Assembly: GCA_964412445.1 (NCBI GenBank)
Contig: CAYPOR010000001.1
Location: 15,586-79,585 of the forward strand
Direction of reading: 5' to 3'
Origin: an uncultured Nitrospira sp.
GTDB taxonomy: Bacteria; Nitrospirota; Nitrospiria; Nitrospirales; Nitrospiraceae
DNA: 64,000 nt
Part shown: positions 23,065 through 28,063 of the stretch, piece after piece
Layout: every line of letters begins with the position of its first letter
Position numbering within the stretch: the first letter of the stretch is position 1
The notes under the pieces: generated by a model
What the model saw: the letters and a program-made list of their open reading frames with translations, nothing else
What the model was told of the DNA's origin: nothing
Databases searched by the model: none
Program-made: the position numbers and the translations under genes

Positions 23065-23127
23065 CCCCAATGCAGAGCTAGGCAGCGCTCCGTCGTTTGG
23101 CGCGGCCGCTTGCGCGGGTAGTGAGGC
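23065..23127 (-). mobile_element. Degenerate integron attC site (63 bp)
   Basis: Minus strand GCCTCAC-TACCC-GCGCAAGC-GGCCGCGC-loop-GCGCTGCCTAGC-TCTGC-ATTGGGG aligns with the generic attC layout GCCTAAC-N5-GCTCAAGCGGACGC...GCGCCGCTTAGC-N5-GTTAGGC at correct spacings, with several substitutions. Confidence 0.6.
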
Positions 23128-23404
23128 GTGACGGTTTCTCCGTAAACCGGCCTGTCACAAACTTATGCAACACGCTGGCAATGAGGGTTTGGTACGGCAC
23201 GCCTTCTTCGGCCGCACGGGTTTGAATATCCATTAGATCGGGTGAGGATAATCTCACATTGACCCTCCGGTCCTTGATGAACGTCGCCCTGGCCGATTCC
23301 TTGAAGCTTTTCAGTTCAGCTTTTGATGGCGCAACTGACGTAAACCGGCCCTTCTCATAGTCTTCTGAAATTCGTTCTTCATACGAAGGTCTATGCTTTT
23401 TCAC
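23078..23404 (-). CDS. CopG/RHH-type antitoxin (BrnA-like partner)
   Basis: KDRRVNVRLSSPDLMDIQTRAAEEGVPYQTLIASVLHKF ribbon-helix-helix signature. 4-nt overlap with the toxin gene. Confidence 0.8.
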   Translation of the reverse strand: MKKHRPSYEERISEDYEKGRFTSVAPSKAELKSFKESARATFIKDRRVNVRLSSPDLMDIQTRAAEEGVPYQTLIASVLHKFVTGRFTEKPSRLTTRASGRAKRRSAA

Positions 23405-23682
23405 TTCACACCGCCTTTCAAATAGTCACGGGTCGCTTTCCTGTTCGGGATAACCGTTTTCAGGAAGTAGGCGTCCGCCTCTTCCACAAACGGGACCAAG
23501 TACGCATAGTGTTCGACCGCAACAATGAACATCCGTTGATTCGGATACTTGCCGGGATTGGCATGCGCGACGATGTCGAGCAATCCGTCGGCTTCAATGG
23601 CCAGCACAATTTCCTCAAAGGAGATGTCCCGCTCCGCTTTCAGTTGCGCATTCTTCTCGTGACTCCAACGAAACGGCTTCAT
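23401..23682 (-). CDS. BrnT-like (RelE/ParE-fold) toxin
   Basis: F.W..EKN..LKAERDISFEEIV, H.NP.KYPNQRMFIV, YAYLVPFVE, FLKTVIPNRKATRDY. Confidence 0.85.
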   Translation of the reverse strand: MKPFRWSHEKNAQLKAERDISFEEIVLAIEADGLLDIVAHANPGKYPNQRMFIVAVEHYAYLVPFVEEADAYFLKTVIPNRKATRDYLKGGVK

Positions 23683-24106: not shown

Positions 24107-24151
24107 TGCGGGGCTATCCCCGCATCCCATGCTGGGCTAGGCTTCCCCGCA
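24107..24151. promoter_or_regulatory. Candidate activator-binding palindrome upstream of second sigma54 promoter
   Basis: TGCGGG-N5-CCCGCA at 24107-24123 plus a second CCCCGCAT half-site at 24144-24151, about 80-120 bp upstream of the -24 box. Confidence 0.3.
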
Positions 24152-24227
24152 TCGCCTTCACTTCTCCCCAATTCTCTGAACCCCTGAATTTCCCTCACAT
24201 CTTTCTCAACTCGTTCGCACTTTCCAC

Positions 24228-24243
24228 CGGCACTCCGGTTGCT
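24228..24243 (+). promoter_or_regulatory. Sigma54 (-24/-12) promoter
   Basis: CGGCAC-TCCGG-TTGCT with exact GG-N10-GC spacing, about 150 nt upstream of the OmpA-domain gene. Confidence 0.72.
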
Positions 24244-24391
24244 CAAGCACAGGACCGTCGGCGGGCAGCGCTGACGGCCGGAAAGGAGGTGACGCAGGAA
24301 CGAGGCCGTCGAAAAAACCAGATCGCCGCCGGATCAGCCGACGAGAGAGATCACAACTTTCAACCATTGAACGTACGAGGAGGAAGCCATC

Positions 24392-25189
24392 ATGCAGAAA
24401 GGTCCGTCCCAGGTTTCGTCAGGCAACATCACCCCCGCCGTCATGGGGCCGCAAAGAGACACCAAGGATATCGTCATCCTCTCCAGCCTCGTCCTGATCC
24501 TGGCAGGGCTCTCGGCCGTGGCCTGGATCTATACCGAATCCCGAGATCCGAAGGCCCTCACCGCGCCGACAGACAAAGTCGACTCAACCAAGGTGTCGGA
24601 ACTCCTTCAAAAGGCCAGCGGGCTCTCCCAAGCCGAGGCTTCCATCGCTCCCTCCACCCCGGTGACGGCTCCGGTCTCGACCGTGGCCGACATCATTCAC
24701 AGCGACGTCTACTTCGAAGTGGGCCGCAAGGGGTTGACGGATGAAGCCAAGGCGCAACTCGCCGCCCAGGCCGACCTGCTCAAGCAGAACCAGGACTATG
24801 CGGTGCTGATCCAGGGCTATACCGACCAGCAGGGGTCGGCCACCTACAACAAGAAACTGGGGATGCAGCGGGCCGAAACCGTGAAGCAGGAACTGCTGAA
24901 CGCCGGGGTCGCCGAACACCAGATGAAAGTCGTCAGCCTCGGTGAAGACGGCGTGCTCTGCGTAGACAACAGCGACGTCTGCCGGCACCTGAATCGGCGG
25001 GTGCACCTCGACATCCGGAAGATCGGCCAGGAGCACATGGTCATCCCGACGGTCGCCACCACCACGGCCATCGACCCGGCCGACTCAAGCATCGAGCAAC
25101 AGGCCTCGGGGCAGCCCGACGGCTCGACCGGCGCCACCTCTCCCTCTTCGCCGGCCGTCACCACGTTTGACCCGGCATCGGGCAGCTAA
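24392..25189 (+). CDS. Inner-membrane-anchored OmpA-like peptidoglycan-binding domain protein
   Basis: SD GAGGAGG; one N-terminal TM; Ser/Thr/Pro linker; VYFEVG...LT, IQGYTD..GS..YN.KLG..RA..VK, NRRV; low-complexity tail. Confidence 0.85.
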   Translation: MQKGPSQVSSGNITPAVMGPQRDTKDIVILSSLVLILAGLSAVAWIYTESRDPKALTAPTDKVDSTKVSELLQKASGLSQAEASIAPSTPVTAPVSTVADIIHSDVYFEVGRKGLTDEAKAQLAAQADLLKQNQDYAVLIQGYTDQQGSATYNKKLGMQRAETVKQELLNAGVAEHQMKVVSLGEDGVLCVDNSDVCRHLNRRVHLDIRKIGQEHMVIPTVATTTAIDPADSSIEQQASGQPDGSTGATSPSSPAVTTFDPASGS

Positions 25190-25204
25190 CGTCGATGTCT
25201 GGTT

Positions 25205-25236
25205 CTGCTGCGCGAGGAGTACACCTCGCGCAGCAG
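25205..25236. terminator. Strong intercistronic hairpin (no U-tract)
   Basis: CTGCTGCGCGAGG-AGTACA-CCTCGCGCAGCAG, perfect 13-bp stem. Confidence 0.5.
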
Positions 25237-25285
25237 CCAAATCCAGCATAGGTACCCCCATCACACTGAATCAGACGAGGACTCT

Positions 25286-27379
25286 ATGACCAGACATCTG
25301 TTTCTTCGCGCAACGTTCGCCCTGGTTCTCTCGCTGGGCGCCGGCAGCCTGTCGCTCGCGCCGGCCTGCGGGAATGAACTGGAACAACCGGACCGGACGA
25401 TTGCGTTGAGTGAAGTGAACGGCGGCAGGCTGCTCTTCAAGACGAATCAGCCCGGCCGCTTTCTTCCCGCCCCTACCCTCAAAACCGACGTCCGCATCTC
25501 CGTCACCGGCCTCATCGCCCGCGCCACCGTGTCACAGGAATTTCTGAACCCAAGTCTGGAGAAAGACGCCTGGGCTGAGGGGATCTATGTGTTCCCTCTT
25601 CCGGACACCGCCGCAGTCGATCACCTGCGCATGAAGATCGGCGAGCGGATCATCGAAGGCCAGATCAAGGAAAAGATGGAAGCCAAGAAAATCTACGAGC
25701 AGGCGAAGCAGGAGGGCAAACGGACCAGCCTGGTCGAGCAGGAGCGACCGAACATCTTTACAACCTCAGTAGCCAACATCGGCCCCGGCGAACGCATCAC
25801 CGTCGAGATCGAGTATCAGGAGACGATCCGCTACGACCAGGGGGTCTTCTCGTTGCGGTTTCCGATGGTCGTCGGCCCGCGTTACATCCCCGGGACGCCG
25901 GTGGTAATGGAGGATCAGCCGCCGGGCAACGGCTGGTCACTCGATACGGATCGCGTGCCGGATGCCTCGCGGATTACGCCGCCGGTGCAGCATCCTGATT
26001 ATGGCTCAATTAATCCGGTCAGCCTGACCATCGATCTCGCGCCGGGCTTCTCCCTCGGCAAGCTTGAATCGCCCTATCACCAGATCCTCACCATCGCCGA
26101 ACCGGACGGCCGGCAACACATCACGCTGCGCGAAGATACAGTCCCGGCCGATCGTGATTTCGTTCTGACCTGGAAACCCACGACAGGCCAGGCACCCACC
26201 CTCTCCGTCTTTCGTGAACAGCAGGGCGACGAGCAGTATGCCTTTCTGATGGCGATGCCGCCGGTCGGCTCAGATCACTCGCAAGCGCCGGTGGCGCGCG
26301 AAACGATCTTCGTCATCGACACTTCCGGCTCCATGTCCGGCACCTCGATTGAGCAGGCCAAGGCCGCGCTGCTGCTCGCCCTGAATCGCCTGACCGCGCA
26401 GGATCGCTTCAACGTGATTCAATTCAACAGCGTCACCCATGTGCTGTTTTCCCAAGCGCAGCCGGTGAAACCGGACACGCTGCGCAAGGCCGTACACTAC
26501 GTCGACAATCTGAAGGCCAACGGCGGTACGGAGATTCTCCCCGCGTTGAAAATGGCCTTGAAAGGCAGCGCGCCTGCCTCGCACCTCCGGCAAATCATCT
26601 TCCTGACGGATGGCCAGGTCGGCAACGAGGATGAACTGTTCGAGGTTATCCGCACGCAACTCGGCGCAAGCCGCCTCTTCACCATCGGCATCGGCTCGGC
26701 GCCGAACAGCCACTTCATGCACAAGGCGGCGGAATTCGGACGCGGCACCTTCACCCACATCGGCAGCACCAGCGAAGTGAAAGCGCAGATGGATGCCATC
26801 TTCCGCAAGCTGGAACGGCCTGCGCTGACGGACCTCCACATCGAGGGCTTAGACGAACAGGTCGAAATGTTTCCCTCCCGCATTCCGGATCTCTATGAGG
26901 GCGAACCGGTCCTGGCGGTCTTGAAGGGAACAGCCCTTCCGGACACCGTCACGATCCACGGCCTGATCGGGTCTGCCCCCTGGACGACATCGATCACGCT
27001 GAAACACCGTGACAGTCGTGAAGGCTTGTCCGTCTACTGGGCGCGGCAGAAGATCGCCGCCCTGATGGACCAGCAGCGCTATGGGCAAGATGAGGCTGCG
27101 ACGAGGCAAGCCGTGCTCGATGTGGCCCTCGCCCATCACCTTGTCAGCAAGTACACCAGCCTCGTTGCAGTGGATGTGACGCCGGTGCGCCCGCGCGACC
27201 AGGCGCTGCAATCCCATGCGATGAAGACGAATCTGCCGAACGGGCAGGACTATCAGACGATCTTCGGGCTGCCGCAGACCGCCACGAGCGGGCAGCTGCA
27301 AATTCTGCTGGGCCTTGCCGCGCTGCTGGCAGCCTGGCTGATGTGGAGCGTGCGGGGATATCGGAAACGCATCGCATGA
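25286..27379 (+). CDS. VIT + vWA domain sortase target protein (marine proteobacterial sortase target type)
   Basis: Signal peptide; VIT domain (V..EF.NP...WAEGIYVFPLP..AAV..L.M.IG.RII.G); MIDAS DTSGSM, IIFLTDG; C-terminal LPQTAT + hydrophobic helix + RKR. Confidence 0.9.
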   Translation: MTRHLFLRATFALVLSLGAGSLSLAPACGNELEQPDRTIALSEVNGGRLLFKTNQPGRFLPAPTLKTDVRISVTGLIARATVSQEFLNPSLEKDAWAEGIYVFPLPDTAAVDHLRMKIGERIIEGQIKEKMEAKKIYEQAKQEGKRTSLVEQERPNIFTTSVANIGPGERITVEIEYQETIRYDQGVFSLRFPMVVGPRYIPGTPVVMEDQPPGNGWSLDTDRVPDASRITPPVQHPDYGSINPVSLTIDLAPGFSLGKLESPYHQILTIAEPDGRQHITLREDTVPADRDFVLTWKPTTGQAPTLSVFREQQGDEQYAFLMAMPPVGSDHSQAPVARETIFVIDTSGSMSGTSIEQAKAALLLALNRLTAQDRFNVIQFNSVTHVLFSQAQPVKPDTLRKAVHYVDNLKANGGTEILPALKMALKGSAPASHLRQIIFLTDGQVGNEDELFEVIRTQLGASRLFTIGIGSAPNSHFMHKAAEFGRGTFTHIGSTSEVKAQMDAIFRKLERPALTDLHIEGLDEQVEMFPSRIPDLYEGEPVLAVLKGTALPDTVTIHGLIGSAPWTTSITLKHRDSREGLSVYWARQKIAALMDQQRYGQDEAATRQAVLDVALAHHLVSKYTSLVAVDVTPVRPRDQALQSHAMKTNLPNGQDYQTIFGLPQTATSGQLQILLGLAALLAAWLMWSVRGYRKRIA

Positions 27380-27960
27380 ATCCGATCCGCCCTACTCCCC
27401 GCACGCTGACTGCCCTCATAGTGTGCCTCCTCGCCCTCGGTTGTTGGCAGCTCGGGGAGGGATCCTGGATTTATGCGAAGGCCGGGCTCGCGCAGCATTT
27501 GCTGCAGCGGGCCTGGTCCCGCACCCTCGCCGGGAAAACCGGCGTGAAACCCTGGCCCTGGGCCGATACTTGGCCGGTGGCGCGGCTGCTCGTGCCCTCG
27601 CAGCACATCGATCAGATTGTGCTGGAAGGGGCCTACGGAAGAATGCTGGCCTTCGCGCCAGGCCATGTCGAATCAATGCAGCCGATCGAAACGGCGAGCG
27701 CGATCATTTTGACCGGCCATCGCGATACCCATTTCAGATTTTTGCAATGGCTGAAGCCGAACGAGGTGATTGAACTGGAAATGACCACCGGCCACCGCCG
27801 GCGCTATCGGGTGGAGAAAACCCGCATCGCAGACTCGCGCAGCGCGTGGATCGGCAACACGCAGGACCAGGCTCAGCTTATTCTGGTGACCTGCTATCCC
27901 TTCGATGCGATCCGGACCGGAGGGCCGCTCCGCTACGTGGTCACGGCGATTATTGATTGA
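27376..27960 (+). CDS. Class GN sortase
   Basis: N-terminal TM, AKA.LAQ.LL.RAW, PWPWADTWPVARL, GHRDTHF (His), LVTCYPF (Cys), LRYVV (Arg). ATGA overlap with the target gene. Confidence 0.9.
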   Translation: MNPIRPTPRTLTALIVCLLALGCWQLGEGSWIYAKAGLAQHLLQRAWSRTLAGKTGVKPWPWADTWPVARLLVPSQHIDQIVLEGAYGRMLAFAPGHVESMQPIETASAIILTGHRDTHFRFLQWLKPNEVIELEMTTGHRRRYRVEKTRIADSRSAWIGNTQDQAQLILVTCYPFDAIRTGGPLRYVVTAIID

Positions 27961-27987: not shown

Positions 27988-28063
27988 TGGAGCCGACGAC
28001 CCGGATTGAACGGGCGACCTGCTGTTTACGAAACAGCTGCTCTACCAACTGAGCTACGTCGGC
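27988..28063 (-). tRNA. tRNA-Thr(CGT)
   Basis: GCCGACGTAGCTCAGTTGGTAGAGCAGCTGTTTCGTAAACAGCAGGTCGCCCGTTCAATCCGGGTCGTCGGCTCCA folds as a 76-nt cloverleaf with encoded CCA. Confidence 0.97.

Follow-up and report, generated by a model that had tools for sequence, protein, structure and literature searches.

The subject of this analysis is a cluster of three genes in a 64,000-nucleotide stretch of DNA (the window) from an uncultured Nitrospira species (GenBank assembly GCA_964412445.1, contig CAYPOR010000001.1). In order, the genes encode an OmpA/Pal-like peptidoglycan-binding protein, a sortase target and a class GN sortase, and they are preceded by a sigma-54-type promoter and by a palindrome that is a candidate enhancer, or upstream activating sequence (Table 1). 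The genome that holds the window is 3.45 Mb in size with 59% G+C, and its nearest named relative is N. lenta, at 89% identity in a comparison of the OmpA-like protein. The stretch was also recovered in DNA sequencing runs of biofilter, bioreactor and drinking-water metagenomes.

The three encoded proteins

The product of the first gene matches PF00691 with 67.1 bits over residues 107-196, above the cut-off of 27.2 bits. An N-terminal tail (residues 1-26) is followed by a hydrophobic segment (residues 27-47), a linker, the OmpA domain (residues ~100-210) and a low-complexity C-terminus, in agreement with an earlier note on this DNA that had described a peptidoglycan-binding protein with a transmembrane segment. 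The best structural relatives of the protein are Pal proteins: the motifs TD..G...YN..LG..RAE.V and NRR are conserved, and TDQQGSATYNKKLGMQRAETV and NRR align with the Pal structures 4B5C and 2HQS. The Pal-like domain of the Nitrospira protein holds a conserved pair of Cys residues, and across 53 orthologues the 26-residue tail is conserved as MQxGPSQVSSGNIAP..GPQ..TK.

Family catalogues already list one OmpA-like family, PdsO (TIGR03789), that is linked to GN sortase pairs. Against that profile, however, the protein encoded in the window scored 60.9 bits, below the cut-off of 152.2, and aligned with positions 135-242 of 243 only; no open reading frame (ORF) anywhere in the genome exceeded the cut-off. 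The glycine zipper is absent from the protein, which has the 26-residue tail and a 21-residue hydrophobic segment instead. Judged by its sequence, the Nitrospira OmpA-like protein is not a PdsO and is predicted to be a membrane-anchored protein of Pal-like type.

The second product scored 800 bits against TIGR03788 ('marine proteobacterial sortase target', cut-off 551.65), with a VIT domain (PF08487, 127.6 bits) and a vWA domain (PF13768, 80.6 bits). It starts with a signal peptide, followed by the VIT domain, the vWA domain with its DxSxS metal site (DTSGS), the LPQTAT motif, a C-terminal hydrophobic segment and the basic end RGYRKRIA; the sorting signal that the earlier note had assigned to this vWA protein is thus present. 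No other ORF of the genome ends in an LPxT motif, a transmembrane segment and a basic tail, and among 55 targets from many lineages the sorting motif reads [LF]P[QAK]TAT.

The third product scored 205.6 bits against TIGR03784 (cut-off 158.25), with the same score in a search of the whole genome, where it is the single GN sortase. It has an N-terminal hydrophobic anchor and carries His in GHRDTH, Cys in LVTCYPF and Arg in PLRYV; these residues (H115, C173 and R186 in the 194-residue numbering) are invariant in 41 diverse GN sortases and align with those of the class D sortase structure 2LN7, which bears out the claim that the catalytic triad is intact. The start of the sortase gene overlaps the stop of the target gene as ATGA, as read directly from the sequence, and the ATG at 27376 is likely to be the start rather than the GTG at 27343. 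Since the genome encodes one GN sortase and one ORF with this kind of C-terminus, the two constitute a dedicated system of one enzyme and one substrate.

The nearest families of the sortase outside class GN are the LPxTATN-specific class D families, against which it scored 66 bits (cut-offs 165 and 140). Class D sortases of Firmicutes (B. anthracis SrtD/SrtC, 2LN7, with LPNTA(T) substrates) have the GHRDT, TCYPF and R motifs in alignable positions and a substrate motif ending in TAT. The Nitrospira enzyme differs from them in its diderm host, in its single dedicated VIT-vWA substrate and in scores far below the class D cut-offs. In class D sortases the acceptor is the amine of diaminopimelate in peptidoglycan, a group that is available in Gram-negative walls too. 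By analogy with these nearest families and their LPxTATN specificity, the acceptor would most plausibly be the meso-diaminopimelate side chain of peptidoglycan or of a lipid-linked precursor.

Table 1. Features of the cluster and its flanks, with positions in the window
Feature	Position	Strand	Basis or remark
BrnT-like toxin and CopG-like antitoxin pair	23078-23682	-	Directly upstream of the candidate enhancer
Palindrome TGCGGGG-CTAT-CCCCGCA, 18 nt, candidate enhancer	24107-24124	+	Unique and conserved
Third half-site TCCCCGCAT	24144-24152	+	27 bp past the right arm of the palindrome; in most orthologous loci
Conserved block AACCCCTGAATTT(T/C)CCTCA between candidate enhancer and promoter	24179-24199	+	80-95% column conservation in a 55-sequence alignment
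Sigma-54-type -24/-12 promoter CGGCAC-N5-TTGCT	24228-24243	+	GG at 24229-30, GC at 24241-42; conservation
GAAAGGAGGTGA, perfect Shine-Dalgarno-like sequence in the 5' untranslated region	24281-24292	+	55-sequence alignment
OmpA/Pal-like peptidoglycan-binding protein, 265 aa	24392-25189	+	PF00691
13-bp GC-rich hairpin CTGCTGCGCGAGG-AGTACA-CCTCGCGCAGCAG without T-run	25205-25236	+	Sequence read directly
Sortase target, 697 aa	25286-27379	+	TIGR03788, PF08487, PF13768
LPQTAT sorting motif	27269-27286	+	Ahead of the C-terminal hydrophobic segment and RGYRKRIA
Class GN sortase, 194 aa from ATG	27376-27960	+	TIGR03784; alternative GTG at 27343
tRNA-Thr(CGT)	27988-28063	-	ARAGORN; convergent with the sortase gene, bounds the cluster

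Promoter, candidate enhancer and leader of the OmpA-like gene

The region upstream of the OmpA-like gene was compared across the genus. From a sample of 101 Nitrospira species genomes, the orthologous locus was retrieved from ~55 species, and the fetched loci were classed by tblastn. The -24/-12 element, which resembles the consensus TGGCAC-N5-TTGCW and has its GG-N10-GC core, lies in a genome that encodes rpoN. This core was kept in all ~55 orthologous loci examined while the intergenic region had otherwise diverged, so the sigma-54 promoter proposed in the earlier note holds up.

The same note had proposed an upstream activating sequence of the form TGCGGG-N5-CCCGCA. An enhancer-like palindrome is indeed there, with a spacer of N6, not N5. 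It is unique in this genome, and with one mismatch or fewer it was found in 50 of the 101 species genomes, about once per genome and, among the matches listed, almost always at the OmpA-like locus; a reversed control pattern gave no match in the 101 genomes. When two mismatches were allowed, the palindrome was present in ~51 orthologous loci, and its distance to the GG of the -24 element was 122-124 bp in 50 of 51 species, unlike the distance from the -24 element to the ATG, which varies from 133 to 295 bp between species. The block between palindrome and promoter was also kept in a further alignment of orthologous loci, and it may be the site of a DNA-bending protein. Taken together, the predicted -24/-12 promoter and the candidate enhancer at this fixed distance upstream form one conserved unit of the OmpA-like gene.

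We looked for other promoters and found no sigma-70-like site on the + strand upstream of the OmpA-like gene, the target or the sortase. The start of transcription is predicted near 24253-24255. The RNA data available were metatranscriptomes that hold relatives, 85-95% identical to the window, and no RNA run of the organism itself was found. Contigs of these relatives cover the OmpA-like gene and begin at or after 24275, which is compatible with the predicted start, although no start was mapped.

An RpoN-box ORF lies on contig C23, and at least 19 ORFs with GAFTGA and Walker A motifs typical of activators are found elsewhere in the genome, while no activator gene adjoins the cluster. This agrees with the earlier proposal of control in trans. 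Likewise, inspection of the ORFs that flank the OmpA-like gene at 11 Nitrospira loci revealed no activator, and no GAFTGA-type ORF was found in the ~4.5 kb upstream of the target in a sample of 61 GN sortase loci from other lineages that had sufficient upstream sequence. A second copy of the palindrome, which might have marked the activator's own gene, was absent from this genome. Because the candidate enhancer occurs about once per genome, its activator probably controls little besides the OmpA-like locus. We conclude from the pattern of conservation that the predicted enhancer-dependent promoter is probably genuine and served by a dedicated activator encoded in trans.

Three related genomes that have the OmpA-like gene only carry a second near-match to the palindrome, ATGCGGGG....CGCCGCAT, with a different core, ~6.4-7.8 kb downstream of that gene (G014:C4:99238, G035:C5:94387 and G100:C36:27614). 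A gene for a NarL-type response regulator recurs near such second near-matches in several loci.

The predicted leader contains a further element, GAAAGGAGGTGA, whose conservation in the 55-sequence alignment is 95% or more and which another genus has retained. It lies ~30 nt into the leader and ~100 nt before the real ribosome-binding site, and an exact 11-mer of it is found 50-54 nt past the GG of the -24 element in 23 species. A small ORF behind this Shine-Dalgarno-like box was considered and rejected: no start codon stands at a workable distance, and the length differences between species are not multiples of three. An Rfam scan of the leader gave a chance-level match only (P10, 15.7 bits against a gathering score of 37). 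The box resembles the 'STAB-SD' mRNA stabilisers described in Bacillus.

Transcription and distribution of the sortase pair

A hairpin begins 16 nt past the stop codon of the OmpA-like gene. Although its sequence varies, a GC-rich 10-16-bp hairpin lacking a T-run is found at this place in all but two of ~54 loci, regardless of whether a sortase pair, a remnant of one or neither follows. The hairpin in the window is a candidate attenuator or stabiliser of the mRNA 3' end; across the genus, it may be a type of terminator or 3'-end protector typical of Nitrospira.

We therefore weighed the alternative that the hairpin separates two transcription units, with a monocistronic OmpA-like gene ending there and the target and sortase transcribed from a promoter of their own, unrelated to sigma-54, within the next 49 nt. 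The persistence of the hairpin, including at loci where the next gene is on the opposite strand, is in line with this arrangement, as is one metatranscriptome in which depth over the OmpA-like gene was 5-10 times that over the target. However, the hairpin has no T-run, and neither a sigma-70-like nor a second sigma-54-like site was found between the OmpA-like gene and the target. Furthermore, an 812-nt contig of a relative from an RNA library (24701-25512) crosses the hairpin into the target, and another contig from relatives (26959-27408) spans the junction of target and sortase. The drop in depth fits attenuation, and it would equally follow from relatives that carry the OmpA-like gene only. 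On balance we think two separate units unlikely. Co-transcription, as proposed in the earlier note, gains support from the one relative's contig that reads into the target, but the strong hairpin after the OmpA-like stop qualifies the word 'operon'.

Across the genus, the three genes do not always occur together. A match to the OmpA-like protein was found in 58 of the 101 species, ~54 of them with full-length orthologues. The full cluster of OmpA-like gene, target and sortase was present at 18 loci. Among cultured species, N. lenta carries the full cluster and N. moscoviensis the OmpA-like gene only. At five further loci the OmpA-like gene is followed only by the last ~124 codons of a sortase gene, and at ~30 loci, among some 55 species, the OmpA-like gene stands alone; where such loci were inspected, the next gene was typically on the other strand. 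The five remnants share a common deletion junction and carry an in-frame stop or substitutions at catalytic positions, which identifies them as pseudogenes left by a deletion that removed the target along with the 5' portion of the sortase gene. An apparently truncated sortase in another genome (G006) was discounted as a case of decay, as it reflects a scaffold gap.

On a tree of the OmpA-like protein, loci with the full cluster turn up in separate places within both main clades and require at least 4-5 changes of state, a count that comes from a short protein. This distribution fits an ancestral linkage followed by repeated loss of the sortase pair. Promoter, candidate enhancer and leader are equally conserved in the full, remnant and OmpA-only states. 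We take this to mean that the stable unit is the OmpA-like gene with its predicted sigma-54 control and that the sortase pair is a dispensable module.

The remnants (loci L021, L023, L075, L085 and L099, in genomes G024, G013, G092, G061 and G078, respectively) retain a sortase fragment of residues ~78-202. The species that carry them do not form one clade on the OmpA-like tree, and one is sister to a full locus, which hints at recombination or at limited resolution of the tree. A separate case of disruption was seen in the complete genome of a member of another genus of the order (locus L022, genome G058), where frameshifts have broken up the pair, so that the target lies in three frames and the sortase in two. 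Upstream of its OmpA-like gene, this locus retains the GGAAAGGAGGTGA box and a diverged form of the palindrome, TGCGTGGACATCCCCGCA.

These distributions bear on a second alternative, in which the sortase system requires the OmpA-like protein, either as the acceptor of the cleaved vWA protein or as its tether to the wall. The earlier note had suggested such a role and had called for a check of co-occurrence. Within Nitrospira the linkage is strict in one direction, as all 18 intact sortase pairs examined lie directly behind an OmpA-like gene. In marine Nitrospirales and at one Rokubacteria locus, too, an OmpA-like gene of this membrane-anchored type precedes the target, and in some Gammaproteobacteria PdsO occupies that position. 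In the other direction the linkage fails: the ~30 species with a solitary OmpA-like gene keep it, with its promoter and candidate enhancer, without target or sortase, and in the 61 loci of other lineages an OmpA-like gene stands next to the target in ~16 and is missing there in ~45. In addition, PdsO and the Nitrospira protein share the peptidoglycan-binding domain only, and overexpression of pdsO did not replace the target protein SO2195 in Shewanella (PMC13712847). We therefore do not favour the tether or acceptor role and regard obligate partnership as improbable.

The OmpA-like protein of the Rokubacteria locus (L185, Candidatus Rokubacteria GWA2_73_35) has 44.7% identity to the Nitrospira protein in the domain, the same pair of Cys residues and TKE before the hydrophobic segment. 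Its gene overlaps the start of the target gene, and no sigma-54 motif was found at this locus. Pairs of GN sortase and target were also found in metagenome-assembled genomes labelled Deinococcota (L198, Trueperaceae), Gemmatimonadota (L163) and Acidobacteriota (L166, Holophagae), well beyond the 'proteobacterial' name of the families.

As for the flanks of the cluster, the tRNA-Thr(CGT) gene lies 28 nt past the sortase stop and has a sigma-70-like promoter of its own on the - strand (28156-28127); metatranscriptome depth was high over this gene. tRNA genes are common integration sites. On the other side, the toxin-antitoxin pair is found at the same place in only some relatives (e.g. L056 and L064), so the left flank is variable while the candidate enhancer is not.

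Relation to known systems and proposed mechanism

The closest known counterpart of the cluster is the 'proteobacterial dedicated sortase' (Pds) system of NCBIfam/TIGRFAMs, which comprises pdsS, pdsR, pdsO, target and sortase and is exemplified by SO2194-SO2196 with PghKR in S. oneidensis. Both have the same target and sortase families, the same order of OmpA-like gene, target and sortase, one sortase for one substrate, and a sorting motif of the xPxTAT type. In S. oneidensis, pdsO-SO2195-SO2196 form one operon that lies beside pghKR and is induced via PghR by the cell-wall-damaging agents carbenicillin and D-cycloserine; SO2195 keeps spheroplasts from lysing and preserves envelope integrity (PMC13712847). 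The statement in the earlier note that the role of GN systems is wholly unknown is therefore outdated. In S. algae, a pdsS mutation up-regulated pdsO, target and sortase by factors in the hundreds (PMC11580497). The same study of S. oneidensis already names Nitrospira among the bacteria that have homologues with an adjacent sortase (PMC13712847).

The Nitrospira cluster differs from the Pds system in three respects. First, the Pds system is under PdsS/PdsR two-component control, while the Nitrospira cluster has a predicted sigma-54 promoter and a palindromic candidate enhancer instead. The best scores in this genome were 157.2 for PdsR (TIGR03787, cut-off 335.7) and 105.5 for PdsS (TIGR03785, cut-off 612.2), and neither match is near the locus. 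Divergent pdsS-pdsR genes were found in ~35 of the 61 loci from other lineages, and none of the 61 had the sigma-54 motif or the palindrome. Second, the N-terminal half of PdsO consists of a signal peptide, a glycine zipper and a coiled coil, in place of which the Nitrospira protein has its predicted cytoplasmic tail and membrane segment. Gammaproteobacterial neighbours of the target scored 111-144 bits on TIGR03789 over nearly the full profile; in four of them, which scored 140-144 bits, all three elements were seen. Third, in contrast to the catalogued system, the OmpA-like gene of Nitrospira is evolutionarily independent of the sortase pair.

Two other comparisons are useful. Pal, other proteins with an OmpA C-terminal domain and relatives anchored in the inner membrane, such as MotB, have the OmpA-like domain and the peptidoglycan-binding motif in common with the Nitrospira protein, which differs from them in lacking a lipobox and tol neighbours, in its N-terminal membrane segment and 26-residue tail, and in its predicted sigma-54 control. 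The PspF-psp system of E. coli is similar in layout, with a site for a trans-acting activator ~120 bp upstream of a -24/-12 promoter, an envelope-protective gene and a very small regulon, all of which are predictions in the case of Nitrospira; there is no sequence relationship to the psp genes. We consider the cluster a genuine variant of a known system, with apparently new regulation and a different accessory protein, and not a new kind of system.

That the palindrome is instead the operator of a repressor or other regulator, or a structural element of DNA or RNA, next to a fortuitous -24/-12 match, is in our view very unlikely: the chance-level frequency of the bare motif and the lack of an adjacent activator would allow it, and we know of no activator site that reads TGCGGGG-N4-CCCCGCA, but the spacing to the promoter is fixed, in contrast to that to the ATG, which shifts by over 100 bp between species, the GG and GC are invariant, a site ~120 bp upstream together with a conserved middle block and a -24/-12 element is the classical enhancer-dependent layout, and the genes upstream differ between species, so the palindrome is not their terminator.

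Our preferred reading, which we hold to be reasonably probable on the basis of the sequence comparisons and the Shewanella analogy, is that the cluster is an inducible envelope-reinforcement module, with a sigma-54-controlled Pal-like gene first and an optional sortase arm. Stress on the cell wall or envelope is plausibly the signal, both by analogy with Shewanella and given that sigma-54 regulons are commonly tied to the cell exterior (PMC3162934). Such a signal would reach the trans-encoded enhancer-binding protein, which would bind the palindrome and the extra half-site and open the sigma-54 promoter. The main product would be the OmpA-like protein, whose N-terminus would lie in the cytoplasm and whose OmpA domain would bind peptidoglycan in the periplasm. 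The hairpin after its stop codon would limit or shape read-through; transcripts that pass it would supply the target, and the sortase would follow by translational coupling at the ATGA overlap. The Sec pathway would export the target, whose C-terminal segment would keep it in the inner membrane until the membrane-anchored sortase cuts LPQTAT between T and A and transfers it to an amine. The OmpA-like protein and the target could then jointly bind the inner membrane more firmly to the wall under stress, comparable to what SO2195 does in spheroplasts.

Several points weigh against this proposal. Genome-wide, GGCAC-N5-TTGC[AT] has 20 matches against ~16 expected from base composition; as the bare -24/-12 motif is not enriched, the promoter call stands on its conservation. 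An A-x-A motif ends the hydrophobic segment of the OmpA-like protein, which could be an anchor or a cleaved signal peptide. The hairpin could be a full terminator, in which case the target and sortase would be transcribed from a promoter that escaped recognition, and the metatranscriptome contigs come from relatives at 85-95% identity and from libraries that may include DNA. The stress function is borrowed from a distant gammaproteobacterium, in which overexpression of the sortase had no effect on tolerance and SO2195 may or may not need the sortase; the authors of that study describe the anchoring site as still to be found (PMC13712847).

A broader version of the envelope-reinforcement reading is more tentative, and we put it forward only as a possibility. 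The ancestral response of Nitrospira to cell-wall damage could be a minimal sigma-54 circuit of one activator, one enhancer and one output gene, to which the sortase pair is an add-on. This circuit would be the functional counterpart of the PdsSR/PghKR two-component system of Proteobacteria, and the relative amounts of the products would depend on the leader box and the hairpin.

The core finding is a member of a catalogued system, and in that respect the gain is incremental. The first functional data on Gram-negative sortases date from 2026 and come from Shewanella. Nitrospira adds a natural experiment, in which close relatives have a full, a decayed or an OmpA-only locus under one promoter and candidate enhancer, and these three states separate the contribution of the sortase arm from that of the wall-binding protein itself. 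The palindrome region provides a short, defined DNA probe that may lead to the activator and hence to the signal. More speculatively, an envelope-protection module of this kind might bear on the tolerance of nitrifiers in water treatment to disinfectants and wall-active compounds.

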